From an uncultured Verrucomicrobiae bacterium (lineage in GTDB: Bacteria > Verrucomicrobiota > Verrucomicrobiia > Palsa-1439): DNA of 64,000 bases. Position numbers and translations under genes: made by a program. Where the stretch lies: the NCBI GenBank assembly GCA_963812605.1, contig CAWEWF010000011.1, forward strand, positions 1-64,000. The letters are read 5' to 3'. Position 1 is the first letter of the stretch, and each line of letters begins with the position of its first letter. The notes beneath the pieces were generated by a model. The model was not told the DNA's origin and made no database searches. It saw nothing but the letters and a program-made list of their open reading frames with translations. This document shows positions 964-25,427 of this stretch, piece after piece.

Positions 964-1860
964 ATGAATCTGTTGTCGAAGATCGCCCTGCTGGTCGGCC
1001 GCAGGAAGTTCGAGGAATTCGCCCAGGCCAACCCCACGCTCCCGGACGACGCGCTCGCCGTCGCCAATACGCTCGACACGTATCCCGTCCGTGGGGCGGT
1101 CGCGCTCGTCGCCGGCTCGCTCGCCCAGGCGGTCGACAATGTGTTGCATGGCACCGAAACAATCGCCGCCGCCGCGACGCACGCGCTCCTGGTCCTCGCC
1201 GCCCTCTGCATCATTTGGGTCCGCCACGCCATCAGCAAACACGACGTGCGCGTCAACGACGTCGTCCAAAAAGCCCGCGCGGTTTCCGGAATCGGCTCGA
1301 AAACCTTGCCCATGATCGTTGCGTTCGGACTTGGCGCGTGGCTGTTTGTTTCCTCTCCGAATTGTAGGGCAAGCGGCCCGCTTGCTGTCGTTTCGGAATC
1401 GGCAAGCGGGCCGCTTGCCCTACAAACGAACACGACGGCGGAAGCGCAAACGAATTCCGCCGCACCTCTCCTCGACAACGCCTTCACCCAACTCGTCACC
1501 GACATTGGCAAGTCCACCAAGTTCAGCAGCGGCGTCGGCATCAATCTTCACGCGAAGGTCGCGCCGCTGCTCTCGCAGGAATTGCCGCTGTTCGGTCGCA
1601 CAGGCACGAACTCCTCCTGGTCCACCGGCCCGTCGCATGCCACCTTCTTTCTCCCCGCCGAGAACGAGGAGCAACTCGGTTGGTCGTTGAGCGGCAGTTG
1701 GAAATCACCGCCGCGCCTCTTGCGCTTCGCGTTGTTCAACGCCAGCGACATCGACTGGACCGTCAACTGGGGCCTGCCCGTCGAGGATTACTACCAGCTC
1801 TTCCGTCACGTCGACTGGAAGGAAAACCGGTTCGGTCTCTCCGTCACGCGGAAATTTTGA
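964..1860 (+). CDS. membrane protein: holin-like N-terminus plus beta-rich C-terminal domain
   Basis: GAGGAG RBS; two hydrophobic segments; ends RFGLSVTRKF; first gene of the operon, where Mu-like phages place lysis genes; contains a 60-bp REP doublet. Confidence 0.6.
   Translation: MNLLSKIALLVGRRKFEEFAQANPTLPDDALAVANTLDTYPVRGAVALVAGSLAQAVDNVLHGTETIAAAATHALLVLAALCIIWVRHAISKHDVRVNDVVQKARAVSGIGSKTLPMIVAFGLGAWLFVSSPNCRASGPLAVVSESASGPLALQTNTTAEAQTNSAAPLLDNAFTQLVTDIGKSTKFSSGVGINLHAKVAPLLSQELPLFGRTGTNSSWSTGPSHATFFLPAENEEQLGWSLSGSWKSPPRLLRFALFNASDIDWTVNWGLPVEDYYQLFRHVDWKENRFGLSVTRKF
1364..1423. repeat. inverted REP doublet (REPIN-like) inside CDS
   Basis: GTAGGGCAAGCGGCCCGCTTG...CAAGCGGGCCGCTTGCCCTAC, 60 bp, read as [21 protein letters not shown]. 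Confidence 0.9.
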
Positions 1861-1878
1861 ACCCGGGAACACTAAGGA

Positions 1879-2244
1879 ATGAATGAACCACACGGAATCA
1901 ACTGGGGCGCGGTCCTGGCCTTCGTCGCGATCCTCGAATTTCTCCGCAGCGTCGTCATCTATATGTTCATCAGCCCGTTGCGCGGCGCGGGCAAGAAGAT
2001 CGACCACCTCGAAAACCAGCTTAACGGCCTTAATTTCACCAACCTGCAAAAAAGCGTCGAGGACCACGAGAAACGGATGCGCACGCTCGAAAGCGACGCG
2101 ATGCCCATCGACGATTTCCAGCGGTACGTGGACACCGCCGAGCGCGATCGCCGCCTGATGAACAAGAAACTCGACATCCTCCTGCAACGCACCGCGCACC
2201 TCCGCGAACCCGAAGATGAAAGGGAACTCTCCGATGAAACCTGA
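1879..2244 (+). CDS. single-TM coiled-coil protein (Mu gp25-like position)
   Basis: N-terminal TM then heptad-rich region; lies before the gp26/gp27-like genes. Confidence 0.6.
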   Translation: MNEPHGINWGAVLAFVAILEFLRSVVIYMFISPLRGAGKKIDHLENQLNGLNFTNLQKSVEDHEKRMRTLESDAMPIDDFQRYVDTAERDRRLMNKKLDILLQRTAHLREPEDERELSDET

Positions 2245-2506
2245 AGAACTCCGCGACCTCCGCGTCGCGCTCCTGCGCGAACTCTACCGCCTGCAACCGC
2301 TCGGCCGCCGCGCCGTCGTGCTCCACAAGCTGGTGGAAGCCGAAGTCGAGTGCACCGTCGCCGAGGTCAACGCCCAGCTCGCGTTCCTGCGCGGCAAACA
2401 TTTCCTCTGCGAGGTCAAAGCCGACGACATCTCCCCCGGCCTCGACCCCTATTGGTTCATCACCACCGAAGGCATGGTCCACTGCGAGGCGAAACGGCTG
2501 GTATGA
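2234..2506 (+). CDS. Mu gp26-like small winged-helix protein
   Basis: RVALLRELY...EVNAQLAFLRGKH...ITTEG pattern; synteny; ATGA overlap with next gene. Confidence 0.65.
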   Translation: MKPEELRDLRVALLRELYRLQPLGRRAVVLHKLVEAEVECTVAEVNAQLAFLRGKHFLCEVKADDISPGLDPYWFITTEGMVHCEAKRLV

Positions 2507-3159: not shown

Positions 3160-5336
3160 ACACCGGCTTCCAGCGCATTTACCAGTCCATCGAACTCGAC
3201 GAAATGCCGAAAGTCAGCACACCAAGGGTGAATTCCTTCCGCGAGTTCCTCGAAAAACACGCCCGCGTCAAAACCCCCGACGGCAGCTATCACCCCTACA
3301 CCTTCCAGGGCCGCGAGGCGCTGGAATTTGTGGTGGGGATTATCGACCACATTCTTGGTAGCGCGAGCGTCCCGCTTGCGGTCGTTCCGGCGACCATCAC
3401 CGGCGATTCCGCAACGGCGGCAACCGGGACGGTCGCCCTACCAGCAACATCCCATGTTCCGATCTCCGACGCCCGCCTCACCGCCACCGGCTCGGCGCAA
3501 TGGGGCAAAACCATCCTCGAATTAAACTTTCTCGCCTACGCCGCCGGTATCCAATTTCGCTCCGTCGGCCTGTTCCTGCCCGATGAAAGTCTCGTCGAGG
3601 GCATCGTGGACAGCAAACTTCGTCCCGATGTCCTCGACCAGCAGCCGTGGCTCAATTCCCTGATCACGCTCGGCAAAGCGGAAAACGCGTCGGGCAAAAC
3701 CGTCAACCGCAAGGGTCTCTTCACCTGCACCGATGGCCGGAAAAGATCGCACGGGATGATCCACGGCATGCAGAAAATCCCCACCACCTTCAGCTTCGAC
3801 ATCGTGATCGAGGACGAGAAGGACGACATCCCGCCGACCATGTCGCGCTACCTCACCGCCCGCATGACCGCCAGCGATCTGCGCTTCCGCTTAAGCATCG
3901 GCACCCAGCGCTACGCCGGCGCGGGACAGAACAAGGAGTTCGAGGACGGCACGATGCACCTCGGCCATTTCACCTGTGCGGCATGCGGCCACAAACAAAA
4001 CCCCGAAGAAAACTGGCCGCAAATTTGCCGGCTCGCCATCGACGACGCGCCGCAATGCGATGATCCACAACTGACTTTGGAAGGGAATTTCAAGAGGACA
4101 CAGGCAGGGACGCCTGTGCCACCAGAGCAGATATTTGAGTTCGAGCCTGATGGCAATTTCTACCTCGCCTGTGTCCATTGCGGCGCGGAGCTTGACCGTC
4201 ACGCTCCCGAATTTATCGCGCAGCATCCCGAACGCGAGAAGTTGCAGCATTGGTCCGTCCGTATTTCGCAACTGCTGGTCGCCGCCATCGCCTTGAAACA
4301 GATCGTCGCCGACTGGTGCCACAACGCGGTGCAAGACCCCGACGCCATGAAGACGTTTTACGTCGATCGCCTCGGCCTGCCGCGTTCCAGCAGCCAGCAG
4401 CTCGACCAGAAAATCCTCGACCGCGCCCGCAGCCTCGAACATTTCGACCTGTCACTGTCGCCGCGACGACCGCAGGCAGGGACGCCTGCGCCACCAGTGC
4501 AATATTACGCCGGGCTCGATACTGGCGACAGATGTTGGCTCACCGTTCGCGAAGTGGAAACGACCGCAGGCAGGGACGCCTGCGCCACCATAAAACGCAT
4601 CACGTGGCTGGAGCAACTCAGCGCCGAACGCGTCCGCGCCCGCGTGCCACAGATTTTCGAGTTGCTGGGAATCAGCACGTTGTTCGTGGATGCCGGCCCC
4701 TTGCGCGATCTCGCGCGCGATCTTTGTTTTCTGTTGAATGGCCTCACCGGTTTTCATCCCGCGCCGCTTCCCGATCCCGAGCGCGCCGTCATTCATTTTC
4801 CGGGCGGCCTCACGTGGGACGGCGCGAACCAGCGCTGGCGCGGCCTGCGTTGCGCCGCCGTCGAGTTCACGCTCAAGGAAGGGAAGGGCGTCGTCCACAA
4901 ACTCGGCATCACGCAGGACGGCCTGTTTTATCCCGTCATCGCCTGCAACCGCGACGAGACCATCGAGCGCGTCGTCAACGAACTGCTCACCGCCGCCGAA
5001 AACGTCATCGAAGTCATCGACAGCAAACTGCGCACCACGCCGTCGATCCGCCTGCCCGCGCGCGGGGTCGCCACGCCGAAGATCATCGACACGTTCGACG
5101 CCCACATCGTTTCCGGCAGCCGTCGCGAGCGCGACGAACGCGGCCGGGCCGAGCATTTTGTCGATGGCTGTGAAAACCATTTCCTGCTCAGCAACGCCTA
5201 CAGCGCGCTCGCGGAATCCGTCGGTGAACGCGGTTTCGCGCCTCCTCCCACCGGCGCGATGAATCCCGCCGCCGCCCTCACCCTCGGAAACCGCGGCCGC
5301 TGGGGCGCGCCCACCCTGGCGAGGAGGCCGTGGTGA
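3156..5336 (+). CDS. terminase large subunit, gpA-like
   Basis: Walker A GSAQWGKT, Walker B IVIEDEKD, CxxC pairs (CAACGH, CVHCG), nuclease AGLDTG; four REP-derived segments. Confidence 0.85.
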   Translation: MNTGFQRIYQSIELDEMPKVSTPRVNSFREFLEKHARVKTPDGSYHPYTFQGREALEFVVGIIDHILGSASVPLAVVPATITGDSATAATGTVALPATSHVPISDARLTATGSAQWGKTILELNFLAYAAGIQFRSVGLFLPDESLVEGIVDSKLRPDVLDQQPWLNSLITLGKAENASGKTVNRKGLFTCTDGRKRSHGMIHGMQKIPTTFSFDIVIEDEKDDIPPTMSRYLTARMTASDLRFRLSIGTQRYAGAGQNKEFEDGTMHLGHFTCAACGHKQNPEENWPQICRLAIDDAPQCDDPQLTLEGNFKRTQAGTPVPPEQIFEFEPDGNFYLACVHCGAELDRHAPEFIAQHPEREKLQHWSVRISQLLVAAIALKQIVADWCHNAVQDPDAMKTFYVDRLGLPRSSSQQLDQKILDRARSLEHFDLSLSPRRPQAGTPAPPVQYYAGLDTGDRCWLTVREVETTAGRDACATIKRITWLEQLSAERVRARVPQIFELLGISTLFVDAGPLRDLARDLCFLLNGLTGFHPAPLPDPERAVIHFPGGLTWDGANQRWRGLRCAAVEFTLKEGKGVVHKLGITQDGLFYPVIACNRDETIERVVNELLTAAENVIEVIDSKLRTTPSIRLPARGVATPKIIDTFDAHIVSGSRRERDERGRAEHFVDGCENHFLLSNAYSALAESVGERGFAPPPTGAMNPAAALTLGNRGRWGAPTLARRPW
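3358..3441. repeat. degenerate REP doublet inside terminase
   Basis: GTAGCGCGAGCGTCCCGCTTGCGGTCGTTCCG...GGGACGGTCGCCCTAC, 84 bp; related to 19642-19701 and 22941-23000. Confidence 0.85.
4099..4590 (-). repeat. three GTGG-type REP copies inside terminase (4099-4123, 4467-4496, 4561-4590)
   Basis: CGACCGCAGGCAGGGACGCCTGCGCCACCA family, read as QAGTPVPP, QAGTPAPP and TAGRDACAT; also at 8718, 15501, 15924, 23512, 49815. Confidence 0.9.
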
Positions 5337-5350
5337 AAAGGAACGACGTT

Positions 5351-5385
5351 AACGCTCAACGTCCAACGTTGAACATTCAACTTTC
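5351..5385 (+). repeat. degenerate heptamer tandem repeat
   Basis: AACGCTC AACGTCC AACGTTG AACATTC AACTTTC; same family at 19234-19327. Confidence 0.8.
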
Positions 5386-5502
5386 AAACTATCGGAAATC
5401 CGCCGTTGTAGGCCGCAAGCCGAGTCAGACGAGACACGCCGAATTATTGCCGGCGGCGCAACCCTCACGCGGCGTCGGTGGACTGGAGAATAATTTTGAA
5501 AA

Positions 5503-5566
5503 TTGTAGGGCGGGCATCTTGCCCGCCATCAAACCAACAGCGGCGGCCAGGATGGCCGCCCTACAA
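5503..5566. repeat. intergenic inverted REP doublet
   Basis: TTGTAGGGCGGGCATCTTGCCCGCC...GGCGGCCAGGATGGCCGCCCTACAA. Confidence 0.9.
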
Positions 5567-5584
5567 AACAACGGAGGAATAAAA

Positions 5585-5980: not shown

Positions 5981-6005
5981 CCGCCGGTCGATCACGAGAA
6001 ACCAA

Positions 6006-7607
6006 ATGGCCAATCGCCTTCGAAAAACGTGGCGCAAACTTGTCGGTGTAGCCGCCGCCTTCCCGGCGGCAATCGCCGGGGCGTCCGGGACGGACACCGC
6101 TACACGCGGTCTCTTCCAATTCGGCGAGAGCAATCTCGTGGACGCGCCTCGTAGAACCGGCGTCTCGCCCGTTCCTCCGGTAGCCGGCACCATCGTCAAG
6201 GCGCAGGTCGCCGAGCGCTGGATGAACCAGGTCACGCGCGGCCTCACGCCCGAGGCGGTTGACGATTATCTCACCACCGCGATCAGCGGCGACACGTTGA
6301 ACCAGTTCGCGCTTTTCGAGGAGATGGAAGAGAAGTGGCCCGAGCTGCGCCTCGCGCTCTACAAACACAAACTCAAGGCCGCCCGCCGCAATCCGCGCAT
6401 CGTCCCGCCCGATCATCCGCAAAATCCCGCCCTCGCCAAAGAGAAAGCCGACTTCGCGAACTACGTCTTCGCCGCGATGCGCAACTGGCATCGCACCGCC
6501 TTCAATCTCCTCGACGCCGTCGGCAAAGGCATCAGCGGCGCGGAGATCGATTGGCAACCAGGGGAGGTGGCAGCTTCGGGGTCGTTGGTAGGGCGCGCTG
6601 GCCCAGCGCGCCGCGCCGCTGTCGTCATCGCTGAAATGCCCTGGGTGAATTATCGGCACTGGAGTTGGTGGTGGGACCGACCCGAATTGCAATTATTCCC
6701 CGACTTGCGCAACCGCGCCCTGCACATCGACGTGCCCGAGCGCAAGTTCATTATCTTCCATCACCTCTCGAAGAGCGGGCATCCCGCGCGCGCCGCGATG
6801 CTGCGCCCGCTCGCCTGGTATTTCCTCATTTACCTCTACACGATGAAGGACTGGAGCACGCTCGCCGAGACCTTCGGCGTCGATATCGCCCACGCGTTTT
6901 GCAACAAGGACGCCACCCAGGAACAGCGCAACGCCATCCTCCTGCATCTCTCCCGGCTCGCCGCGCGCGCCGGCGTGTTCGATGAGGGAACGGTCGTCAA
7001 TCTCCAGCGCGCCGCCAGCGGCAGCGCGTTCCCGCAGGAAGCGCTCGTGAAATATTGTTCCGAGAAAGCGCTCGAATGTCTCCTCGGCGCGACGCTCGGC
7101 ACACAAGCCGGCACCCACGGCGCGCGTTCCTTGGGATTGGTGCAACAGGACGAAACAGAAGAGATGGTGGACTGGACCTGCCTCCTCTTCGCGGGAACGA
7201 TGACCGGCACCGCGTTGCGGTGGCTGATGGATTTCAATTTCGCCGATCCCACCGACAATCCCGTGATGGAATTGCCCGGTGCCAGCCGCCGCGACATCGC
7301 CGCCCTCGCCAACGTCGTCAACACCCTGGTCAACCTCGGCCTCCGCGTCCCCGAATCCTGGGCCCACGCCCAGTTCGACATCCCGCAGCCCGGCACGACC
7401 ACCGAGCGTCTTTTAACGCCGAGCCAAACCGGCAGCGCGGGCCCCGTCGATACCGATACATCTGACGTTCCGCTTAACGGATCTGTGGAACGCGCTCTCG
7501 AAGCCATGCGCCTCAAGGCCGTCGCCGCAGGCCGCGACCCGGAATCCATCGACCGCGAGAAGCTCATCCTTGCGGAACTCGTCACCGGCCACACGAAAGG
7601 GACCTGA
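6006..7607 (+). CDS. Mu gp29-like portal protein (DUF935)
   Basis: ALFEEMEEK, LLDAVGKGISGAEIDW, LLGATLGT, SLGLVQQD, LVNLGLRVPESWAH motifs; REPs at 6151-6173 and 6581-6613. Confidence 0.9.
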   Translation: MANRLRKTWRKLVGVAAAFPAAIAGASGTDTATRGLFQFGESNLVDAPRRTGVSPVPPVAGTIVKAQVAERWMNQVTRGLTPEAVDDYLTTAISGDTLNQFALFEEMEEKWPELRLALYKHKLKAARRNPRIVPPDHPQNPALAKEKADFANYVFAAMRNWHRTAFNLLDAVGKGISGAEIDWQPGEVAASGSLVGRAGPARRAAVVIAEMPWVNYRHWSWWWDRPELQLFPDLRNRALHIDVPERKFIIFHHLSKSGHPARAAMLRPLAWYFLIYLYTMKDWSTLAETFGVDIAHAFCNKDATQEQRNAILLHLSRLAARAGVFDEGTVVNLQRAASGSAFPQEALVKYCSEKALECLLGATLGTQAGTHGARSLGLVQQDETEEMVDWTCLLFAGTMTGTALRWLMDFNFADPTDNPVMELPGASRRDIAALANVVNTLVNLGLRVPESWAHAQFDIPQPGTTTERLLTPSQTGSAGPVDTDTSDVPLNGSVERALEAMRLKAVAAGRDPESIDREKLILAELVTGHTKGT

Positions 7608-8465: not shown

Positions 8466-9719
8466 ATGTCTGACGTTACAACATCAATACCGAACACAAA
8501 ACACGCCGTCGCCTTCACCGGCCTTTCGACCGCAATCGGCAATCCAGAATCGCCAATCCAAAATCGCACCGATCTTTGGATCGTGTACTTGCCGAAAGGC
8601 GACCGCGCGGTTGACCAGAGCGCCGAGGACGGGACGCCGGTGAAATTGCGCGTCAATCCCTCCGCGCTTTCCGCGAAGCGCATGGAAGCCGCGCGCCGGG
8701 TAGTTGCAGGTGAGGTACGACCGCAGGCAGGGACGCCTGCGCCACCAGGACCGAGAAACCAGCCGTACACCGATTACAACCACGACGATAAGGAAGCCAG
8801 CGGTCGACCGTTGAAATTCGCGTGGCATGACGACCTCGGTGTGATTGGCCTCACGCGGCGCACGCTCCAAGCCATCGAACGCACCACGGGCGATCCGCCC
8901 GAGTTCCAGGCCTTCTCGCCGCACGTGCCCATCGACCCCGAAACGGGCGAGGCGGTCGGTATATATATGAACTGCGGCGGTTTTGTGAATCGTCCGCTCT
9001 TCGGCGACGCCACTTCGCTGTCCGCCGCCGCGCATCTCCCGCAGGAATTGGTCGCCGCCAATCCAAACGAAGTCGAACTCATCAATGTTGTAGCAGCGTC
9101 CGTCCCGGACGCTTCCGTCGCCGCAACCGTAGAACGGGCGTCCCGCCCGTTTACCGAATTGATCGCCAAACTCTGCGCCCATTACCAATTCGATCCCGCT
9201 ACCGTCACCGAGCCCGAATTGATCGCTGCCTTCGACCGCGAGTTCGCTGACATCACCGCACTGACCGCGCGGGCGAATCTGGCGGAAAACGCCATCGTCG
9301 CGCTTGGGTTCGAGAAATCCGCCATGCCCAACCCCGCCGAGCTGACCGCAAAAGCCGCGCTCCGCAAACCGTCCGACGAAGAAATCGGAATGGAGCTTGT
9401 CGGCTTTGCGGTCGGCTGCGGGATTCTCGCGCCTGCCGAGAAAACGGAATGGGAGCGCCGCCTCGCCAAAGACCGCGCGGGCTGGACGAAGGAGTTGCTC
9501 GCGAAAGCGCCAAGCGTGTTGCTGGGCCGGATTATCCAGGACCAATCCGCCACCCACGCCGCGGGAGGAACGAAGCCAAAAGCGAAGTGGGAGCACCGGG
9601 TCGAGGAACTTTGCGCGAAGGACCCCCTCATTGCCCCCATCGCGACGAAGGATCCCGCACGCGCCAAATCAATTGCGCTCGAACGAATCGCCAGGGAGGA
9701 GCCAGCGCTCCTCAAGTAG
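8466..9719 (+). CDS. Mu I-like prohead protease/scaffold
   Basis: AGGAGG RBS; DYNH...ASG, FSP and GFVNRP motifs; helical C-terminal scaffold region; repeats at 8534, 8718, 9090, 9129. Confidence 0.8.
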   Translation: MSDVTTSIPNTKHAVAFTGLSTAIGNPESPIQNRTDLWIVYLPKGDRAVDQSAEDGTPVKLRVNPSALSAKRMEAARRVVAGEVRPQAGTPAPPGPRNQPYTDYNHDDKEASGRPLKFAWHDDLGVIGLTRRTLQAIERTTGDPPEFQAFSPHVPIDPETGEAVGIYMNCGGFVNRPLFGDATSLSAAAHLPQELVAANPNEVELINVVAASVPDASVAATVERASRPFTELIAKLCAHYQFDPATVTEPELIAAFDREFADITALTARANLAENAIVALGFEKSAMPNPAELTAKAALRKPSDEEIGMELVGFAVGCGILAPAEKTEWERRLAKDRAGWTKELLAKAPSVLLGRIIQDQSATHAAGGTKPKAKWEHRVEELCAKDPLIAPIATKDPARAKSIALERIAREEPALLK

Positions 9720-10141: not shown

Positions 10142-10192
10142 CCAAAAATTGTAGGGCAGGCCTCTTGCCCGCCGACGAAAGGAAACAAGTAC

Positions 10193-14665: not shown

Positions 14666-15751
14666 ATGGCAGCCAACAACATTGCCGAAATCATCCTGAA
14701 AGTTACGACCGAAGGTCAGGGGAATGCCCAGGCTCTGGCCGCGCAATTGACCCAGCTCGATCAAGTGACGAACAAGGTGATGACCACCACCGTGGCCGCT
14801 ACCTCCGCGCAAAAAACGTTTAATGCGGAAATCGGCAAGACGTCACCAGCCGCGGGTCTTGTCGCCAAGGCGCAATTCCAACAGCCCCCTTCACAATTGG
14901 AAAAGCTGTCGCAGAACTGGGGCGACCTGCAAAAGCAGGTCGATGGTTTCACCACGCACACCCTCCGGGATTTCACTTCCACGTCCGCGCGCGCGTTGAC
15001 GCAATGGATCGAGGGCTCGAAGAACGCGAAGCAGGCCTTTGCCGGTTTCGTCACCTCCGTCCTCGAAGGCATCATTCAAATAATGCTTCAGCAGACGATT
15101 GCCCACGCGCTTGGCCTGACACAGGCGCAAGTCTCCGCGCAAACACAGACTGTCGCGAACACGGAAATCGCCGCCAGCGCCGCGCCCGCCGCCGCGCTCA
15201 CGGGCGCCGCCACCTTCGGGGCGAATTCCATCGGCGTGGCGCTGGTGATTGCCGCCGTGCTGGGTGGCGTCGGCGCATTGCTGGCCCTGACGCGTAAAGC
15301 GGAGGGCGGTCCGGTGTTTGGCGCGGGCAGCGAAACCAGCGATTCGATTCCGGCGTGGCTTTCGCAAAACGAATTCGTGCAACCCGCCTCCGCCCATAAT
15401 TACTACGGCACCGATGTCATGGAAGCGATGCGGACGCGTTCCATCCCGCGTGATGCCATCCGCGCTTCGATGGAGCACCGCACCTTCTCGCTGGGAGGTA
15501 TGGTGGCACAGGCGTCTCTGCCTGTGAGGGCCTTTGCCGAAGGCGGTATCGCCGTGCGCATGGCCGGTGGCGGCATCATCCCGAATGTCAGCGTCGGCGG
15601 CGCGACTGTCTTGATGGCCTTCGGTCCGCAAGAGATCGACCGCTTGATGGCCACCAGCGAAATGCAGAAGCACCTCGACGATCATCTGGACCGCAATCGC
15701 CACCGCATCGTACGCCACGTCAAACGCAGCGGAGGGACCCGCCAGGAATGA
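14666..15751 (+). CDS. short tape measure protein (361 aa)
   Basis: A/Q/T-rich helical; C-terminal AEGGPVFGAGSETSDSIPAWLSQNEFV motif; REP at 15501-15526. Confidence 0.85.
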   Translation: MAANNIAEIILKVTTEGQGNAQALAAQLTQLDQVTNKVMTTTVAATSAQKTFNAEIGKTSPAAGLVAKAQFQQPPSQLEKLSQNWGDLQKQVDGFTTHTLRDFTSTSARALTQWIEGSKNAKQAFAGFVTSVLEGIIQIMLQQTIAHALGLTQAQVSAQTQTVANTEIAASAAPAAALTGAATFGANSIGVALVIAAVLGGVGALLALTRKAEGGPVFGAGSETSDSIPAWLSQNEFVQPASAHNYYGTDVMEAMRTRSIPRDAIRASMEHRTFSLGGMVAQASLPVRAFAEGGIAVRMAGGGIIPNVSVGGATVLMAFGPQEIDRLMATSEMQKHLDDHLDRNRHRIVRHVKRSGGTRQE

Positions 15752-17619
15752 TCAGCGGCCTCACCATCTTCCCGTTCCGTGCGAATTGGTCCAAGCCGAT
15801 CACGCTGAAGTCCACCTTCGCGACGAACGTCAAGCGTGAGTCGATCCCCGGCAGCATCACGCGCGATAGCGCCCGCGACTACGGCCAGCGATCCATCAAG
15901 TTCAACATCCTGCCTTACAATGATGGTGGCGCAGGCGTCCCTGCCTGCGTCCGTGACTCGTGGGACGCCTTCCGCGAGGCGAATCCGCCGGGCACGATCC
16001 TCGGCATTCCGTTGTGGAGCGAGGAAGGCATTTACCTGACCGCCGACGCCGCGATCGGCGCGACGACTCTCTCGCTCTCCGCGGTGAACTTCGTGGACTG
16101 GCGCGGTGAAGCCGTCCTCTGGCCGTTCGGTAGTGGCGCGGGCGTCTCGCCCGCGGTCGTTGAAGGCGTCACCATCGCCAGCATCAGCGGCGCCATGATC
16201 AATCTTTCAAGCGCCCTTACAATCGCCTTTAAGGCCGGTGATCAATTCCTTCCCTTGATGCGCGGCTTTCAAATCGACGACTACGCCGAGCGCGTCCTCA
16301 GCCCGGAGATCTCCGAGCTGGTGCTGGAGTTTGTCGAGGACCTCGCGCACATCGGCGCGTATGCGGTCCCCGGCACGGTCAACGCCGTGTCGTATCTCGG
16401 CATCCCGGTCCTGCCGCTCATCGCCGAATGGAGCGAGCCGCCAACCGTCGGCATCACCCAGGGCACGCACGTGGTTTCGCAAGGGATCAATCGCCAGGCG
16501 CTCGCCACGCTCCGTCAATACGTCCGCCAGCGCCTCTCCTATCGCGTCGGTTGCGACGGTCGCCAGGACCGCGCGACCATCTGGGAGTTCTTTCACGATC
16601 GCCGCGGACGGTGGGACCGTTTCTGGCTGCCGTCGTTCAAGGATGAACTGAAACTTTCTGCCGATGTCGGCGCGACCGATACCTTCCTGACGCTGGAGAA
16701 TTTCGCGGACTACAGCAGCCGCTTCAATCTCGGCGGCGACCTGCGCGTCTCAATCTTCATCACGGATGGCTTCAACTTCTGGATTCGCCAGGTCAAGAGC
16801 CTTTCCACCGACAACTCAAACAAAGTGACGATTGATTTCGCGATCGGCTCTCCGCTTTCCGCTTCCGCGACGATGATCGGCCTGTTGCCCCTCGTGCAGT
16901 TCGCCACCGACGATATCGAGATCGAATGCCAGTCGCCGCTCGTCGCCACCGCGACCCTGGCCTTCACCGAACTGGAACGGGAATACGTCGAAGTGGACGC
17001 TACCTCGTGGCCGCCCGTGGGCGGCACCGCCGGCGGAACCGGTACCGGCGGATTGAACAATGCACCGCCTCCCCCAGCAACGCCTTGCAGTAATTTTGAT
17101 TCGGGCACCACGCCCAGCCAACTGCTGATCCATGTGAAGATTCAGGGGCCACCGCCCGGCGTGTGCACCGCCTACGAAGTCGGCAACACGCTGAAGATGG
17201 TCTACCAAAACGTGCCCGGCGACTTCGACGCGAACGGGCTCTTCGAGCACGACCTGGTTGCCACGCAGGTCTCGGGCAGTCCCTGTGTGTATGAGACGGC
17301 CACCGCGGACTATTTCGGCGGCGGCGGCGCGGTGTATATGGCCGCGCAAACCTACTCCGACAATCACTGCGGCACGGGCGGCGGCATCGGCGCAACCGTC
17401 AACGGTTTCTTCCGGCTCACCAAGCAGGCCACGTCGATGCTGATCCAGTGGGTCGTCGTGGGCAGCCCCACACACATCATCCGCGACCAAACGTTCACCT
17501 GCACCAGCGACGGCAACGCCCTCAACGGCGTCGGCGGCCAGCTCGCCAACGAGTATTCCTACGAGCAACTCTTTTCCCTAGTGCTCAGCACGTTCACCGT
17601 GGAGATCGTCCAGCCATGA
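15748..17619 (+). CDS. distal tail/baseplate protein with C-terminal extension
   Basis: ANWS, AEWS, FFHDRRGRWDRFWLPS motifs of Mu-like siphophage tail proteins; G/P linker then ~180-aa extra domain; REPs at 15924 and 16133. Confidence 0.7.
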   Translation: MISGLTIFPFRANWSKPITLKSTFATNVKRESIPGSITRDSARDYGQRSIKFNILPYNDGGAGVPACVRDSWDAFREANPPGTILGIPLWSEEGIYLTADAAIGATTLSLSAVNFVDWRGEAVLWPFGSGAGVSPAVVEGVTIASISGAMINLSSALTIAFKAGDQFLPLMRGFQIDDYAERVLSPEISELVLEFVEDLAHIGAYAVPGTVNAVSYLGIPVLPLIAEWSEPPTVGITQGTHVVSQGINRQALATLRQYVRQRLSYRVGCDGRQDRATIWEFFHDRRGRWDRFWLPSFKDELKLSADVGATDTFLTLENFADYSSRFNLGGDLRVSIFITDGFNFWIRQVKSLSTDNSNKVTIDFAIGSPLSASATMIGLLPLVQFATDDIEIECQSPLVATATLAFTELEREYVEVDATSWPPVGGTAGGTGTGGLNNAPPPPATPCSNFDSGTTPSQLLIHVKIQGPPPGVCTAYEVGNTLKMVYQNVPGDFDANGLFEHDLVATQVSGSPCVYETATADYFGGGGAVYMAAQTYSDNHCGTGGGIGATVNGFFRLTKQATSMLIQWVVVGSPTHIIRDQTFTCTSDGNALNGVGGQLANEYSYEQLFSLVLSTFTVEIVQP

Positions 17620-17640: not shown

Positions 17641-17709
17641 GTAGCCGCGTCCCGATTCCGAGATCGGGACGCGCGCCGCGTTGGTGTAGCCACGGCTCTG
17701 TGAGCCGTG
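17641..17709 (+). repeat. two intergenic GTAG hairpins
   Basis: GTAGCCGCGTCCCGATTCCGAGATCGGGACGCG and GTAGCCACGGCTCTGTGAGCCGTG; first is related to 14037-14063, second to the 19908-19964 doublet. Confidence 0.8.
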
Positions 17710-19327: not shown

Positions 19328-19340
19328 CGGGAGTTTCCGC

Positions 19341-19892
19341 ATGACACCGCACTGTCCATACTTCCCGAACAACCAGCCGCGCATCGATGCGCTCCTGGCG
19401 CAGCTCGCCGCGTGGGAAGGCACGCGCTGGCGGCACGCGGGCGCGCGACCCAACGACATGCGCTGTGGCATCAGTGGTGATTGCCTGTTTTGGGTTCACG
19501 CGTTCAAGGCCATCGGCGCGCTGCCGGCAAAGTTGGAGATCCCGGACTATCGCCTGCACGAAGCCAGCGCCGACGAAATGCAGACGCTCCGTCGTTGCAT
19601 CGAAGCAACCGGCCGCGCATTGCTGACGTGGGCGCGGCCTGGTAGCGCGAGCGTCCCGCTTGCGGTCGTTCCGAAGATGGCAAGCGGGACGCTCGCCCTA
19701 CAAAATTTTGCGATCGGCGACGTGCTGCTCTTCAAGAACGGCACCAGCGGCGCCCACTGCGGCCTCGCAGTCAAGGAATCGCCGCTCCACTTCGTCCACC
19801 TCACCGGCAACGGCCTGCTCGAAGAGCCGTTCCACCAGTCCCATTACATCGCCGCGCTGGCATACGTGTATCGACTGTTGGAGGACGCGTGA
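19341..19892 (+). CDS. tail-associated NlpC/P60 peptidase
   Basis: WEGTRWRH, GDC, GDVLLF, HCGL, FVH motifs; 60-bp REP doublet at 19642-19701. Confidence 0.85.
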   Translation: MTPHCPYFPNNQPRIDALLAQLAAWEGTRWRHAGARPNDMRCGISGDCLFWVHAFKAIGALPAKLEIPDYRLHEASADEMQTLRRCIEATGRALLTWARPGSASVPLAVVPKMASGTLALQNFAIGDVLLFKNGTSGAHCGLAVKESPLHFVHLTGNGLLEEPFHQSHYIAALAYVYRLLEDA

Positions 19893-19907
19893 AACACGTA
19901 TTCCGGT

Positions 19908-19964
19908 GTAGCCGCGCCTCTATGAGGCGCGTTCGTTCCGCACGGCTCGCAGAGCCGTGGCTAC
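19908..19964. repeat. intergenic inverted REP doublet
   Basis: GTAGCCGCGCCTCTATGAGGCGCG...CACGGCTCGCAGAGCCGTGGCTAC. Confidence 0.8.
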
Positions 19965-19980
19965 ATAAGGAGGCGGCGTA

Positions 19981-22925
19981 ATGGGTTTTCTCGGCGGCTC
20001 CAACGCAGGTGTTAACTCGAACCGGCGCGCGGTCACGCAATCGCCTGTCGCTTCCAACATTCTCGGCACACCCTGGCCGACGCTGTGGGGCCTGCGCGAC
20101 TTGAACGGGACCGTCATCGCCTGGACGAATCACCGATTCAGCAACGCGGGCTCTTCCGGCAAAGGCGGTGGCCAGGTTTCCTCCGGCGAGAAGGATTACC
20201 GCACGTTCGCGCTCGGCTTGTGCATCGGGCCGGTGGATCGCATCACGCAAATCTGGTACGACAATGAGTTGATCTGGGAAGGCAATGTTGGCGTAGCCTC
20301 CGCGGCAACCGTCGCCACGGCCACGGTCGGTGTCGGCGGCGTCGTTCTTACCGACAACGTTGCGCGCGGGACGATCACGTTCTATTTCGGGTTGGACACA
20401 CAGACCCAAGACCCGGTGCTCGCTCAATTCATTCCCGACGTGCCGTTCTACCGCGGCATGTGCTACGCAGTGTTCCACGGGCCCCGTAGTGGCTCTCGGG
20501 GCTTTCGCCTGGGCAACGCGGACACACTCGCGCAGGTCGCGCTGTACGTGGAGCGCATCCCGAAGACATTTGCGGGAATCTCGTTCACGGCCAGCGTCGA
20601 GGAGAATCCCGGCAACGCGTCGAACGAATTGCAACCCATCACCATTATGGCTAGACGCGTCCGGCTTTCACGGGCACGAGCGATGTGGAGTACTCGCTGC
20701 TGGCCCGCGAGCAGATCGGTTCCAATTCACAACTGAACGTCGCGTGGGCTTCCGAGACGGGCAGTGACACAACCGGCTCGGCGCTCATCACCAACGGCAC
20801 TCCTTTCGCTGTCGGCACGCTCGGTTTGATGGTCACGCTGTCGTGGGGCTCGAACGCATCGCCGCCACTGGAGACCGTCCTGGTCGCCATCTGGGAGATC
20901 TTCCTTACCAGCGCCGTCAGCGCCATCGGCGGCGCGAACGTCGCGAGCATCATCTACGAGCTGCTTACCAGTAGCGTGCACGGCGTCGCGCTGGATGCTG
21001 CGGTCCTCGACATGCCCGCGTTCCAGAACGCCGCCGCCGCCGTGACACAGATGGGCCTTTCCTGGGCGGTCAAACAAAAGGGCGATGCGCGCACGCTCAT
21101 CGAGGACATCCTGAAGAGCGTCCAGGGCGCGCTCGTCATCAGCAACGGCGCCATCGGGCCGCGCCTGCTCACCGGCGGTACGGTGGCGCTGACGCTTGAA
21201 CCAGATGACATCGTCGGCCTCAAGCAACGCCCCGGTTGCTGGTACGAGGTTCCGCAATACGCGACCGTCAAGTACGCGGACATCAATCGCAAGTTCCACG
21301 ACACCATTCTCCCGCTGCCAGGCGCGGGAGATTTTGGCGACGACGAAAAGACAATGGAGATCGCGTTGCCGATGGTCACCGACAACGGCGTGGCGCGCTT
21401 GATCGGCTCGCGGCTGCGCACGCTGGAGGCTCTCCCAAAGAATCCCGACACCATTCTCTGCGGTCGCGGCGCGTTTCAACTCCAGTTCGGCGACGTGCTT
21501 TTGATCAACGATGCCGCGCGCGGCTTCGACCCGACCTTGCCGATGATCATCATCGCCATCCGCGAGCACGGCGCGGGCGATGAAGTGATCGAGATCGATG
21601 TCGTGCCCGACGTGTTCAGCCCGTTGCCGGCAACAACGGCAGTCGTCGGCGGCACAAACGGGCCAGGACAAGGCGCTTCAGGAACGCCCATTGACCCGAT
21701 CTCGCTGCAGGAGCTTGTCGAGTTGCCATTCGATTTCGCCCCGGACGGCTCGAAACAGTTCACCTTGTTCGCCGCGCGTCCCGATCCCGACGTGCAGGGC
21801 ATGACGCTCTACGCGTCCACCGAGAACCCGCCCGTCGATTACAACGGCGTGGACGATTCTGCTCCCTTTCACGCGGGCGGCACGTTCGTCGATGCGAGCC
21901 TTCCAAAATTCACGATGGATCGCGAAGCCTACATCGACTTCACGCAGGGCAGCGACGACATCGAGGCGTTCTCGTCGCTCTCGGACAACGATTGGTTTGG
22001 ATATCAAATGCTCGTGCTCGTTGGCGCTGGCATCAACGCAGGACTCTACGCGGCGCGCGAGTTGGTGTTTCTCGGCGGCATAAGCTGGCGGCTACGAGGA
22101 ATCTTTGGGCCGCTATCAGACACGCCAGTCCCCACGCCAAATCCCGGCGATCCCGTGTTCGTCTTCGCTGTCCGCCCGCTTTATAATCTGGCTGGCCAGC
22201 CATCGTGGGTGATCAATTCGCTCCTGACGTTCAAAGGGATTCCTTTCGGCAGTAGAATCTCCCCGACGCTGGCGCAAACGGTCGCCACCGGCCTCACGAT
22301 CCTTTCGCGCGCCGCGTGCCCGCGCCCCGCGCAGAATCTCAACGCCAACGGTCGCGGCGGAATTGCCTCGCCGTTCTATAGTGGCGCGGGCGGCTCGCCC
22401 GCGAGTGATATTAACCTGGCGTGGGACCTGTGCAATCGCGCGTCGGGTTTCGGCGCGGAGACCATCCCTTGCGAGTTTGATCCATCCGTCGCCACGGAGA
22501 TCGCGACGTGCGCCATCGAGATTTGGGTCGCTGGAACGCTCGTGCGCACCGACGCGGCCAATGTCCGCGCCGCCGTCGCGACCGCGGTGGCCACCGCAAC
22601 CAGCGCCCTGCAATTCGATGTCGCTTCGGTCGCCGGATTACAGCCCGGCGACCGCATCAGTGTCGTCCACGGCGCGGCGCACGAATACTTCGGGCGTATC
22701 GCCTCGATCAGTGGCCTGACGATCACGCTCGTCTCGCCGATCGCGATTCCGCCCGCGCTGGGCGACACCGTGAATTGCTACGAATCCGTCGGCTACATCT
22801 ACACCGCCGCCAACAACGTCGCCGACAACGGCAGCCTCGCCGCCGCCGTGGACATCAAGGTCTACCCAATCTTAAACGGCCTGCGCGCCCTGCGCCCGGC
22901 AGAAATCCTGGTGACAAAGATATGA
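19981..22925 (+). CDS. large tail tip/host-specificity protein, split by apparent frameshift(s) at ~20636-20668
   Basis: N part: PTLWG, ALGLCIGPVDRITQIW, PFYRG; C part: ANVASIIYELLT, LQFGDV; the two ORFs form one typical tail protein. Confidence 0.75.
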
Positions 22926-22940: not shown

Positions 22941-23000
22941 GTAGCGCGACCGTCCCGTTTGCGGTCGTTATGACCAGGGCAAGCGGGACGCTCGCCCTAC
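22941..23000. repeat. REP doublet between tail genes
   Basis: GTAGCGCGACCGTCCCGTTTGCGGTCGTT...GCAAGCGGGACGCTCGCCCTAC. Confidence 0.85.
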
Positions 23001-23013
23001 GAGGCAGAACATC

Positions 23014-23481
23014 ATGAGCGTCCTCTCCAACGGCACCGAAGATCTCCAGGGCCAGAACCTCACGCCGGCAGCCGCGTATGCTGTGGCCAACACCGCTTTC
23101 CAAAAAATCGCACTGATGTGTCTCCTCGACAAGGACGTGCCATTTTACGGCCTGCCGCGCGACGGCGCGATTCGCGGCACATCGCAGATCGCCATCGAAC
23201 GTCTCATCACCGCCGTCGAGATTCGCGCCGAAGGGTCCGCGCCCGTTGGCAGTTCCCTGATCGTGCAACTGATCGTCGGCGGCGTGCTGCAGTCGCAACA
23301 GTACGCGCTTCCCGCCGCCAGCGCCTACGCCCTGGTCGCCGTCATCAATGACGGCAACGGCGGCGCCTCCGGCTCGGGTCTCGTCGTCCCCGCCAACACG
23401 ACGCTGGCCGTCCAGATCACCAGCGGCAACCAGGCCGTCGATGTCGTCGTCACTCCCAAAACCCAACTGAGGATTCTCTGA
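23014..23481 (+). CDS. beta-rich hypothetical tail accessory protein
   Basis: 155-aa ORF, same codon style, 2 nt from the next gene. Confidence 0.7.
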   Translation: MSVLSNGTEDLQGQNLTPAAAYAVANTAFQKIALMCLLDKDVPFYGLPRDGAIRGTSQIAIERLITAVEIRAEGSAPVGSSLIVQLIVGGVLQSQQYALPAASAYALVAVINDGNGGASGSGLVVPANTTLAVQITSGNQAVDVVVTPKTQLRIL

Positions 23482-23483
23482 CC

Positions 23484-25427
23484 ATGAAACGCACTTTAAT
23501 TCTCCTTTCACTGGTGGCGCAGGCGTCCCTGCCTGCGGTCGTCCGCGCCGGCAACGTCTACCCCGACCGCGTGATTGTCGGCGTCGCCACCGGCGAAGTT
23601 GACGAAACGCAGTACAGCACCAACGACGTTTCGCTCACCGTCACCAATCTGCCCGGCGGCGGTCGTCGCGCCATCCTTGGGATCAGCGGCAGCGCTTCCA
23701 AAGAAACCACCAACGCCGCCCTCGACAAGCTCCGCCTCAACGACGGCGGCTCGCTGACGAACGTTCCTTCGCCGGCAGGCATGGTCACCAACAATCAGCG
23801 CAATGTAAGTCTGGGATTTCCTCCCGACCTGTGGGTCTGGCCAACGTTCGTGGATGCCGACGACAATTTACAATTCTTCATCGGGGGACTCACCAACGCG
23901 ATCCCGCTCGCGCCGAACCCGATACTAGTGGGCAATGCGAGTTGGTTTTTCCGCGACGGCAGCATGATTGAGGGAGCGGACGGTGTGTTCACCATCGCCA
24001 ACACGATCAACATCAATCCCACCAACGGCTTCGGGCTAACCAAGACAACCGACCTCAGGACGGCGCTTGCCAATACCTTCGTCTCTGTGGCCTCCGTATT
24101 GGCGAGCAATGGACTGGTATATGCGCCGGAAGAGGCGATCACGCCGTCAGCCACCACCAATATAGTCGTCACCATTGCCACGAATGGCACCAGCGGCCTG
24201 GCTCTCTTCGTCATGCAGGCCACCAATACGACGCTGACCGCATTCACCACGCCGACGGCGATCTCGATCACCAACAGCGGCATCTGGACGGTGCCTTCCA
24301 GCGGCAACTTCAACGATGGGTTCTACAAGTACCGCAACGGCAAGCACTGGCTCCTTTTCACCGGCAACGACACGATGGTTTATGTCGCGTCCTCGACCAA
24401 CGGCATCGGCGGTCCGTACGGCATGGCCGGCGCCTTTACCGGCCTGACCAACGCGACTCTCTCGGCAATTGAGGGTCCATCCATTTTCGATATCGCGCAG
24501 GCCAACGGGACCACCAACAGCTATTTGATCTGCGCCGCCGCGTTCGCGCCCTCGCGCCAGGAAGAGCGCATGGGCTGGTCGGTCACGACCAATGATTGGA
24601 CCACGTTCACCACGACAAACCAGTGGGCATCCTTTTCGGCGCTCGTGCCGGTCAACGCCTCGCTCTTAATCAACCATTGCACTCCATTCCACGTGGAATC
24701 GATGACCGCGATGAAGGCCCTGCTGGCGCGCCTCTTTAGTGGACGTTACCCGGCCACGCCCATTCCGAAGTCGATCTCCTACACCGGCAGCTTCGGCCTG
24801 GATGTGCCGCAATTCGGGCTCCAGGACCCTATTTTCCAGCGATGGTCCGGCATGACTGTCTACACGAACGCTGGCGTCGGCTTGGTCGCCGGCAGCGACA
24901 TCAAGTTCATCATGACCACCAACGGCAACTTCTACGCCGGCGGATTCGGCCAGACCGAACTGAATCCCGATCCGCCGGCCGAGTTCAACCCCAACGAGCG
25001 CTTCTGGATGATGAGCAACCCGAACGCCAACGGCGATTCGTACTTTTGGTTCCGAGTCCTGACCGGCAGCGGAGTCGTGTTCGGCATTGGCAATCACAAC
25101 GGCACGGGTTTCCTGGCGGAAGAAGGGGCCGCGCCGATTCAATTCTGGGTCAACGCCAACTCCGGCAGTTCGACGCCCTTCAGCGGCGCGACAATCACTT
25201 TCTCCGTGGACCAGGCCTCGGCCACCAGCCAGGTGCCGTTTGATGTGGAAGGCACGTTGACGGAGAAGGGGCATCCGGTGATTACGAACGGAGTGCCACT
25301 GGGAAGTTCACTGTCACAACGGTCCTCCATCACCAACGCACCCGCCGCCGCCGTTTCCTCGCCAACCGCGTGGGCGGACATCATCGGCACCAACGGCCAG
25401 CACTACGTTGTGCCGTTATACCAATAA
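23484..25427 (+). CDS. fibre/adhesin-like protein with signal-like N-terminus and possible GH43/32-like propeller segment
   Basis: T/N/G-rich; NDGFYKYRNGKHWLLF, ASSTNGIGGPY, IEGPSIF, SVTTNDWTTF; ends NGQHYVVPLY; REP at 23512-23541. Confidence 0.6.
   Translation: MKRTLILLSLVAQASLPAVVRAGNVYPDRVIVGVATGEVDETQYSTNDVSLTVTNLPGGGRRAILGISGSASKETTNAALDKLRLNDGGSLTNVPSPAGMVTNNQRNVSLGFPPDLWVWPTFVDADDNLQFFIGGLTNAIPLAPNPILVGNASWFFRDGSMIEGADGVFTIANTININPTNGFGLTKTTDLRTALANTFVSVASVLASNGLVYAPEEAITPSATTNIVVTIATNGTSGLALFVMQATNTTLTAFTTPTAISITNSGIWTVPSSGNFNDGFYKYRNGKHWLLFTGNDTMVYVASSTNGIGGPYGMAGAFTGLTNATLSAIEGPSIFDIAQANGTTNSYLICAAAFAPSRQEERMGWSVTTNDWTTFTTTNQWASFSALVPVNASLLINHCTPFHVESMTAMKALLARLFSGRYPATPIPKSISYTGSFGLDVPQFGLQDPIFQRWSGMTVYTNAGVGLVAGSDIKFIMTTNGNFYAGGFGQTELNPDPPAEFNPNERFWMMSNPNANGDSYFWFRVLTGSGVVFGIGNHNGTGFLAEEGAAPIQFWVNANSGSSTPFSGATITFSVDQASATSQVPFDVEGTLTEKGHPVITNGVPLGSSLSQRSSITNAPAAAVSSPTAWADIIGTNGQHYVVPLYQ

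Follow-up and report, generated by a model that had tools for sequence, protein, structure and literature searches.

The 64,000-nucleotide stretch analysed in this study (hereafter the window) is C11:1-64000, part of the genome of an uncultured Verrucomicrobiae bacterium (G000; 4.17 Mb in 15 contigs, 58% G+C), and its left part carries a phage-derived head-tail gene cluster of 23 genes (g01-g23; 964..25427, plus strand; PHROG and Pfam matches) into whose coding sequences (CDSs) short hairpin repeats of the repetitive extragenic palindromic (REP) type have been inserted. In total, about 21 REP units were found at about 18 sites in nine of the 23 cluster genes, and all of the approximately 18 coding sites are in frame and without a stop codon. 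We consider it highly probable that copies of REPs and of REPINs (REP doublets forming hairpins) were inserted through the cluster, with selection keeping those that are in frame, rich in small residues and tolerated in loops. The REPs would be non-autonomous repeats of the kind mobilised by REP-associated tyrosine transposases (RAYTs; Y1/HUH transposases), and their copies would insert singly or as inverted doublets throughout the long-resident cluster. Purifying selection would retain only insertions that preserve the reading frame, that are read in frames giving small peptides rich in Ala, Gly, Pro, Ser and Thr, and that fall in loops or linkers tolerating extra residues; the surviving inserts would add 4-26 residues each, and rigid proteins such as the capsid and tube would carry none. 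A permissive site would be reused, so that the orthologues of sister species would differ in the repeat present at a given hot spot or lack one there. In-frame, repeat-driven peptide insertion filtered by frame and by tolerant loops had been proposed in a first-pass annotation of the window, and it is supported by each of the tests that were run.

A relaxed hairpin scan (GT[AG]G head, G+C-rich stem of 7-12 bp with at most one mismatch, loop of 3-7) of window positions 1-26000 gave 33 units, 22 in CDS and 11 intergenic by curated gene starts, which have a GT[AG]G head, a stem of 7-11 bp and a loop of 3-6 nt. The pattern of repeat family B has eight matches in the window, seven of them in cluster CDS, against 0.00 expected from 100 dinucleotide shuffles, and the pattern of families A and E has 14 matches, again against 0.00 expected (100 shuffles). 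The cluster holds four coding and three intergenic doublets. The first-pass annotation had listed 17 hairpin sites and a set of recurrent peptides; on sequence reading and hairpin scans, all 17 sites hold the units described, the one at 14030 being a headless partial copy, and the peptides do recur. It had also equated the 33-mer 6581-6613, in the portal gene, with the intergenic 11832-11864, which holds the REP copy 11839-11865, and the two are identical. The doublet spans of 60, 84 and 60 bp that it gave are correct, however, the fact that these are multiples of three did not stand as evidence, as only 15 of the 69 intergenic doublets of the genome show it. No REP had been seen in the capsid and tail tube, and the capsid, the tube and tail gene 17726-19219 of G000 are indeed free of them once a chance-like hairpin is set aside; this hairpin (13635-13661, tube gene), detected in the relaxed scan only, resembles no family and is probably due to chance.

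At the level of the genome, G000 contains 2377 perfect hairpins (stem of at least 7, loop of 3-7), 552 of them with a GT[AG]G head, and contig C4 has 66 headed hairpins against 11 in a Markov-3 simulation. Allowing at most three mismatches, the seven families A to G have 88, 64, 36, 20, 18, 14 and 29 copies, respectively, on the 15 contigs, with units 23-28 nt long. Stems are perfect in 57 of the 64 copies of family B, positions 2-5 of its head (GTGG) are invariant or nearly so, and its stem variants are compensatory (CACAGGC/GCCTGTG, CGCAGGC/GCCTGCG and CGCAAGC/GCTTGCG). There are 92 head-to-head doublets, most often spanning 62 bp, of which 69 are intergenic, 16 lie in CDS and 7 are mixed. 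By crude gene calls, 374 of the 552 headed units are intergenic, and 29 of the 64 family-B copies lie deep in CDS. The hairpins of the cluster thus belong to several GT(A/G)G-headed REP/REPIN families of G000. Two other assignments were considered and rejected. Miniature inverted-repeat transposable elements do not fit single hairpins of 23-28 nt that show no target duplication at 10 junctions compared with empty sites; Rickettsia palindromic elements (RPEs) do not fit units of this length whose heads are GTAG or GTGG and not CGTC. The repeats resemble RPEs in behaviour without belonging to them.

The insertion status of the sites was read from orthologues in other genomes of the same genus (labelled G001, G002 and so on; 17 others were searched). 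As the first-pass annotation had suggested, the proteins were aligned with their homologues, and 15-16 of the 18 G000 sites are lineage-specific, in-frame indels relative to at least one orthologue. Several are hot spots with other inserts in other species, which include other REP families as well as two unrelated repeat-derived peptide types (...SPLP.GER... and ...ILRSAQND...). For TerL, the large terminase (3156-5336; this and the other cluster genes named here are on the plus strand and were assigned by PHROG and Pfam matches), an alignment of 30 sequences with identities down to 24% has only four internal segments of at least three residues with less than 50% occupancy, namely 71-98, 316-323, 438-445 and 470-476, and these coincide exactly with the four REP-coded segments. 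Residues 71-98 correspond to a family-E/A doublet (3358..3441; units 3358-3380 on the plus and 3419-3441 on the minus strand), a site that is empty in G006 and G005 and holds different inserts in seven orthologues. The next TerL site, a family-B REP with the peptide QAGTPVPP (4097..4122, minus strand), is hypervariable, with a different sequence in each orthologue and an alignment occupancy of 0.30. Two further family-B units on the minus strand follow: the one at 4471..4494 (RPQAGTPAPP) is a 24-nt insert, empty in eight of nine orthologues and partly common to G013, and the one at 4565..4588, read in another frame (TAGRDACAT), is a 21-nt insert, empty in five of nine. A TerL peptide that extends across a REP-coded segment and its junctions is, for example, ...SPRRPQAGTPAPPVQYY....

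Similar observations were made in other genes of the cluster. A family-A doublet of REPIN type in g01 (1364..1423; units 1364-1385 plus, 1401-1423 minus), with a 21-residue peptide, is absent from seven of eight orthologues; the insert measures 78 nt (26 residues) for a GTAG-to-CTAC span of 60 nt, and the span is therefore not the insert size. The Mu-type portal gene (6006-7607) has a doublet near its N-terminus that was missing from the earlier list (6048..6103; units 6048-6070 plus, 6080-6103 minus). It lies downstream of a conserved MANRLRKTW start and adds 3-16 residues relative to six of seven aligned orthologues, the N-terminus of G009 being mis-called and uninformative. The portal also contains a family-G REP with the peptide RRTGVSPVP (6151..6174, plus) and a family-D REP with the peptide VGRAGPARR (6588..6612, plus), the latter adding 6-9 residues relative to G006, G002 and G005. 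In the Mu-like protease/scaffold gene (8466-9719), a family-B REP (8722..8745, minus; RPQAGTPAPP) represents a net insert of 27+6 nt at a site that is empty in seven of seven orthologues, and two REPs on the plus strand (9090..9151; units 9090-9115 and 9129-9151; peptides AASVPDAS and VERASRPF) are common to G006, with G012, G002 and G005 shorter there.

Among the tail genes, the unit near the N-terminus of the tail chaperone gene (14030..14062, plus) is the headless copy, lacking GTAG and corresponding to part of the intergenic 17641-17673 unit, and belongs to a 51-nt insert absent from G006, G012, G002, G005 and G013. The tape measure protein (TMP) gene (14666-15751) carries a family-B REP (15503..15526, plus; VAQASLPV). 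Tail gene 15748-17619 holds a family-B REP (15926..15951, plus; GGAGVPAC), a 24-nt insert empty in four of four orthologues, and a family-C REP (16133..16155, plus; SGAGVSPAVV) with a net gain of 18 nt (6 residues) relative to G006 and G012; the same site is occupied by a family-B unit in G013 and by a family-A/E unit in G016. A family-E/A doublet in g19 (19642..19701, plus; peptide GSASVPLAVVPKMASGTLALQ) adds 15 residues relative to G012 and G005, and different inserts occupy its site in G009, G013 and G016. The family-C REP of the J-like tail gene (22381..22403, plus; SGAGGSPAS) is a 21-nt insert that is empty in G006 and G012, with a similar sequence in G009. A family-B REP (23514..23537, plus; LVAQASLPAVV) lies in the signal-peptide-like N-terminus of g23, a stretch that is different and shorter in G006 and G012; within 23484-23560, it gives most of that N-terminus (MKRTLILLSLVAQASLPAVVRA).

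Protein lengths range across the genomes from 685 to 846 residues for TerL, from 508 to 613 for the portal and from 365 to 451 for the protease. Across eight genomes, on the other hand, length is kept in the major head protein (MCP, 339 residues), the tube (261), g09 (121) and g13 (177-179), and the adaptor varies by 1-2 residues. The load of perfect-stem CDS hairpins per orthologous cluster is 15 in G000, 22 in G009, 10 in G013, 7 in G016, 7 in G002 (a half-cluster), 5 in G006 and 3 each in G012 and G005. The genes for MCP, tube, g09, g13 and adaptor account for 14% of CDS, yet they contain none of these 72 hairpins in any of the eight genomes (nominal p=1.6e-5, the genomes being kin and non-independent).

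The possibility of an assembly artefact was rejected, as the same pattern occurs in nine other assemblies. Four soil-metagenome contig sets were also aligned to 900-20899, where they gave a depth of 0-4 with short contigs, many of which end at REPs (1362/1393, 6053/6085, 11771-11867 and 15500), as is expected for repeats; at this depth no presence/absence polymorphism of REPs was seen among these contigs. One contig of 588 nt (15449-16036) spans the REPs at 15503 and 15926 with one difference, however, it was not counted as independent support because it possibly comes from the same sample as the assembly.

The genes that bear the inserts are constrained. Relative to G006 and G012, dN/dS is 0.03-0.27 for 20 of the 22 genes g01-g22, at dS values of 0.19-2.8; the exceptions are the chaperone (0.36-0.41) and TMP against G012 (0.28), and g23 has 0.54-0.58. 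Frame usage was assessed on family-B copies deep in well-scoring genes (n=28), which read QAGTPAPP in 14 cases, GRDACAT in 6, GAGVPAC in 5, AQASLP in 2, WRRRPCL in 1 and DRRQGRLRH in none (chi-square p=3.4e-5), with the Arg-rich frames accounting for 1 of 28 against one third expected (p=1.8e-4). The cluster carries about 0.95 units in each kb of its CDS and about 5 in each kb of its spacers. Mapping on a predicted structure was possible for TerL, for which the AlphaFold model of the G000 protein has a mean pLDDT of 84.8 and a pTM of 0.78, with the solved large terminases of HK97, D6E, Sf6 and T4 gp17 as top structural matches. All four inserts are modelled as coil, so that they are predicted to sit in loops, in agreement with what the first-pass annotation had supposed. 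The block-mean pLDDT is 41-47 for residues 71-100, 72-79 for 311-330, 75 for 441-450 and 64 for 471-480, against at least 90 in the surroundings, and the insert 470-476 (the 4565 REP) forms a turn between model strands 460-469 and 478-488.

On comparison with the rest of the genome, the cluster is the top of 1910 sliding windows of 24.5 kb, with 25 headed hairpins where the windows average 3.1 and the 99th percentile is 14, and its REP density ranks above that of the array around the family-A RAYT. By strict family matches, 16 of 70 deep-CDS copies fall in the 22.2 kb of cluster CDS against 0.36 expected; by the hairpin definition, 17 units lie in cluster CDS against 1.0 expected. Coding REP density in the cluster is 17-44 times that of other genes, bearing out the uneven distribution proposed in the first-pass annotation. 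Its restriction of the process to virion genes, in contrast, did not hold, as at least 41 genes outside the cluster carry deep in-frame family copies. The 20 of these 41 that were tested, in a choice favouring longer and better-scoring genes, are ordinary cellular genes, all with curated Pfam domains: AlaRS, SRP54/Ffh, ALAD/HemB, PrmC, anthranilate synthase I, an aconitase-family enzyme, glycogen synthase, MetH, PurL, a class-III aminotransferase, Mfd, HrpB, a CCA-adding-type enzyme, thymidine phosphorylase, a NuoM-type subunit and one HEAT-repeat protein are among them. REP insertion is a genome-wide process. Among the host genes of the window, where only two units had been noted, the family-A REP at 34116..34138 (plus; peptide VGQAARLP), in frame in a class-I aminoacyl-tRNA synthetase gene (33732-35609, Pfam tRNA-synt_1c), is the only clear copy in CDS; 35355 is chance-like, and 33205 and the family-B REP at 49815..49839 (minus) are intergenic. 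Of the 12 genome copies of one family-B subtype, CGCAGGC/GCCTGCG, 5 lie in the cluster (Fisher p=0.005), and G006 and G012 lack all five, which points to a recent, local spread. We favour the view that the cluster became the densest sink through the low cost of insertions in genes that may be rarely expressed and are structural and loop-rich, together with local spread of this one subfamily.

RAYT genes flanked by these REPs, for which the first-pass annotation had advised looking, were also found. Five Y1_Tnp matches occur in G000. The family-B RAYT matches NF047646 over its full length (83.2 bits, cut-off 80) and has inverted family-B units on either side, at C2:122956 and 123533, and a RAYT-like gene at C14:~656600-657620, with the HUH motif in one frame and the Y motif in another, is surrounded and interrupted by a dense array of family-A REPs, a region that is the second densest in REPs of the genome. 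The HUH and Y motifs are visible in the RAYT alignment. On examination of its surroundings, the family-B RAYT proved to lie inside alaS: the only alaS gene found in G000 (C2:121095-124442, minus strand, 1114 codons) holds the full-length RAYT, with HUH motif and catalytic Tyr motif, in frame at residues ~296-499, and the bracketing family-B REPs read GGASVPAC and PQAGTLAPP. Of 11 genus genomes examined, G001 and G009 are likewise occupied at this site and the remaining 9 are empty there; the seamless empty site of sister species would be expected from precise Y1-type excision. Further downstream, the G000 alaS contains a family-E doublet. A related arrangement was seen at C6:70666-71778, where one ORF of 370 codons combines a complete D-aminoacyl-tRNA deacylase (dtd; TIGR00256, residues 1-146) with a partial RAYT (residues 264-358), with REP-like hairpins between the two parts.

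It is tempting to suggest, although we regard it as rather unlikely, that the REP-RAYT system as a whole has moved into coding sequence, with its most active family, B, driven by the alaS-embedded RAYT, a domesticated, GTA-like (gene transfer agent-like) cluster as its main sink and, through repeated local insertion and turnover, the REP peptides as a standing source of new loops in terminase, portal, protease and tail proteins. In that event, expression of the transposase would be tied to that of an aminoacyl-tRNA synthetase, either alongside it or within the same protein, and the cluster would be a preferred target and not merely a tolerant one. If confirmed, the embedded RAYT would be a concrete system for how a domesticated transposase is maintained and expressed. 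A literature search on a RAYT-alaS fusion, with most subscription journals outside it, turned up nothing relevant.

Several observations weigh against filtered REP insertion as the explanation for the cluster. The portal region at 6151 is variable, but has the same length as in G012, and the TMP site at 15503 shows a net gain of only 12 nt relative to G006, G012 and G016, with its flanks replaced. No target-site rule, common target or target duplication was found at 10 insert junctions compared with empty sites; mobilisation by RAYTs is suggested by the association of repeats with these genes, and translation of the inserts is presumed. Since the genes outside the cluster (3590, covering 80% of the genome) are our own crude calls, the genome-wide CDS and intergenic rates are approximate, and the orthologues are kin, so that counts across them are non-independent. 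The G000 cluster moreover carries lesions. Its J-like gene is split into overlapping frames (19981-20736 and 20685-22925), compared with a single ORF of 972-1103 residues in six relatives, and the break sits in a divergent stretch in which the nucleotide alignment is too divergent to place the lesion. The C-terminus of its neck protein (12390-12570, ~60 residues) is unrelated to the conserved C-terminus of ~24 residues in seven of seven orthologues. Because of these lesions, a part of the REP load of G000 could postdate loss of function. Beside these points, it may be recorded that the neck region has foreign-looking sequence of lower G+C, that the portal C-terminus of G000 is about 100 residues shorter than in G002, G016, G009 and G013, and that the portal-protease spacer (7607-8466) has two minus-strand ORFs (7620-7853 and 7916-8395) without a Pfam match.

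Such lesions would fit a dead prophage in which REPs accumulate neutrally and the open frames are leftovers. The split J-like gene, the replaced neck C-terminus and the extra ~860 nt between portal and protease speak for it, as does the fact that no integrase, transposase or replication gene is seen beside the cluster, and the REP density of cluster CDS (0.7-0.95 per kb) exceeds even the genome-wide intergenic density (0.21-0.45 per kb). Nevertheless, neutral decay accounts poorly for the low dN/dS of 20 of the 22 genes g01-g22, for gene order and open frames maintained in six other species, for coding sites that are all in frame and stop-free, for usage biased against Arg-rich readings, for capsid, tube, g09, g13 and adaptor genes without a REP in eight genomes and for spacers about five times denser in REPs than CDS, and we consider it improbable. 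The hairpins might alternatively be functional cis-elements of the cluster, such as mRNA stabilisers or attenuators of a long late transcript, or protein-binding or packaging signals. Their stems are maintained by compensatory change, and the spacer REPs lie just downstream of stop codons (5505, 10151, 11773, 17641, 19908 and 22941), and for REPs elsewhere a role as 3' RNA elements has been proposed (PMC3733652). Yet copies of these units number 14-88 genome-wide, some of them inside housekeeping genes, their presence, family and position differ between the orthologous clusters of sister species, the load per cluster CDS varies from 3 to 22 units among genomes, and mobilisation alone predicts stem conservation; we regard this role as very improbable.

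The turnover at the hot spots invites a third interpretation, in which diversifying selection maintains them and the repeats serve as cassettes that vary surface loops of TerL, portal and tail proteins in defence escape or receptor binding. Nearly every species does carry unrelated inserts at these positions (TerL sites 1, 2 and 4, g19 and the second site of tail gene 15748). TerL and portal proteins are targets of Avs-type sensors, which would agree with this interpretation, and a PDB entry entitled 'Avs3 bound to phage PhiV-1 terminase' is among the structure matches of the TerL model. However, identical families are found in cytoplasmic housekeeping enzymes, where such pressure does not apply, the inserts are low-complexity, linker-like and unalignable for positive-selection testing, and the element appears to be chromosomally resident rather than infecting new hosts, all of which makes this the least probable of the explanations considered. 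Insertion of mobile REP copies under a filter of frame, composition and loop tolerance is hence the explanation that we retain.

The cluster in which these repeats reside is of a type that combines a Mu-like head with a siphovirus tail. In addition to the genes named above, it encodes TerS (small terminase, Mu gp27-like; 2503-3159), MCP (major head protein; 10193-11212), an adaptor (Mu gp36-like), a neck protein, the tail tube (13146-13931) and the tail chaperone; there are four distal tail genes (15748-17619, 17726-19219, g19 at 19341-19892 and the J-like gene at 19981-22925). TerL orthologues with 77-90% identity are present in 9 of the 17 other genus genomes, and the frames are open in all 10 genomes. 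The whole cluster is collinear in six other genomes, and three further orthologous loci are partial, cut by contig ends. In G006, host-like genes flank the cluster on both sides, with an FHA-domain protein, an EamA fragment, a MORN protein and a histidine kinase on one flank and a methyltransferase and ribonucleotide reductase (RNR) on the other; the right flank is common to G000, G006 and G012 (RNR 94-95% identity), and a different right flank is common to G009, G016, G005 and G013. No integrase, Mu-type transposase or replication gene was seen beside the cluster, the G000 contig starting 960 bp upstream of it. The cluster may be a defective prophage of long residence or an element akin to GTAs. 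IMG/VR yielded three partial contigs of it. As for a second prophage that could serve as an internal control, PF05065, PF04860 and PF03354 each had 0 matches in G000, a genome that is 90% complete.

The spacers of the cluster hold REPs of the same kinds: a doublet between TerL and g06 (5505..5564), a single unit between g09 and MCP (10151..10173, plus), three tandem units between adaptor and neck (11773-11797, 11806-11830 and 11839-11865, plus), two units between tail genes (17641..17709, plus), a doublet between g19 and the J-like gene (19908..19964) and a family-E/A doublet between the J-like gene and g22 (22941..23000). Other repeats share these spacers. One family (CCTCTCCCC-N-GGGGAGAGG, then GGTGAGGGG) occurs just upstream of three start codons, at 11220-11262, 11865-11905 and 13945-13985, and the same CCTCTCCCC/GGGGAGAGG/GGTGAGGGG family is read in frame inside TerL of other species as ...SPLP.GER...G. 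Units of a third type, resembling AACGTTGAACG, lie in the spacers 5340-5395 (after TerL) and 19235-19330 (after tail gene 17726-19219). The tail chaperone gene has a run of nine A at 14325-14333, followed by an open -1 frame that reaches the TMP gene, and this run is probably the usual programmed frameshift site of G/GT type. Just to the right of the cluster, a patch of 52% G+C carries an IS1595-family transposase gene (DDE_Tnp_IS1595 and zinc ribbon; 27222-28214, minus strand).

Orthologue-by-orthologue evidence of this kind indicates that functional proteins can grow longer through selfish hairpin repeats, in permissive loops that are used again and again, and it provides a natural map of insertion tolerance for terminase, portal, prohead protease and tail proteins. 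Coding palindromes, known from Rickettsia and Opitutus, are also placed by it in uncultured Verrucomicrobiia of peat and soil and in phage-derived genes. For annotation, stretches such as QAGTPAPP, GRDACAT, GAGVPAC and AQASLPA should be considered neither domains nor sequencing errors, and such REPs break short-read assemblies.

Comparison with known systems helps to place both the cluster and its repeats. RcGTA and other GTAs have a head-tail-only cluster with host-gene flanks, a conserved chromosomal place and purifying selection. The present cluster may be comparable, as a head-tail cluster with host-like genes on both sides in G006, under purifying selection, with no integrase or replication module in view and present in 9 of 17 other genus genomes. 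Unlike RcGTA, it has Mu-like head genes and spans ~24.5 kb, its regulatory and lysis genes were not identified, and it is known from its genes, from which neither particles nor random DNA packaging is deduced.

As regards the repeats, RPEs, reportedly described by Ogata et al. in 2000 and 2002, are said to be inserted in frame in functional genes, including housekeeping genes, and to be tolerated as extra peptide segments. RPE-1 is longer than the units described here. The likeness lies in what appears, from the sequences, to be in-frame insertion in constrained genes (dN/dS 0.03-0.27 in 20 of 22), housekeeping genes included. There is no sequence relation between RPEs and the present families, and RPE-4 and RPE-6 are of CGTC type according to PMC3733652. 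Rickettsia is, in addition, an obligate intracellular alphaproteobacterium with a reduced genome, whereas the host here is a free-living soil Verrucomicrobium of ~4.2 Mb.

The REPIN-RAYT systems of Pseudomonas and E. coli (Nunvar 2010, PMC2817692; Bertels & Rainey 2011, PMC3337134; Corneloup 2021, PMC8266576), as described, have in common with the present one GTAG-headed hairpins, inverted doublets, a Y1/HUH transposase flanked by its REPs (single-copy in their case) and several families per genome. The REPs of those systems are described as extragenic in the great majority; in G000, by our gene calls, 29 of the 64 copies of family B are deep in CDS, and the family-B RAYT itself is inside an essential gene.

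The closest precedent is the work of Di Nocera, De Gregorio & Rocco 2013 (BMC Genomics 14:522; PMC3733652), which describes GTAG REPs lying wholly inside ORFs of known function, with the highest intragenic count in Opitutus terrae, a Verrucomicrobium, and also reports the GTGG head variant, dimers encoding 20-30 residues, insertion in tRNA synthetases and the parallel with RPEs. The repeats of that study and ours are alike in being palindromes of 20-40 bp with a GTAG or GTGG head, several families per genome and an association with RAYTs, and because intragenic GTAG REPs had been described there, the kind of phenomenon was already known. The first-pass annotation had named Rickettsia RPEs as the coding precedent; with intragenic GTAG REPs in print since 2013, the background is therefore wider than RPEs. 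Prophage ORFs may figure among the target ORFs of the earlier study, however, the word 'phage' occurs 0 times in its text, and in literature searches, with most subscription journals outside them, structural genes of phages or prophages were not reported to carry REPs. In contrast to that study, the densest REP region here is a phage-derived structural cluster, the inserts were traced over orthologues of nine species to recurrent hot spots, and the frame bias was measured. The new elements are the context of phage-derived genes, the turnover at hot spots from one species to another, the bias in reading frame and the high density.

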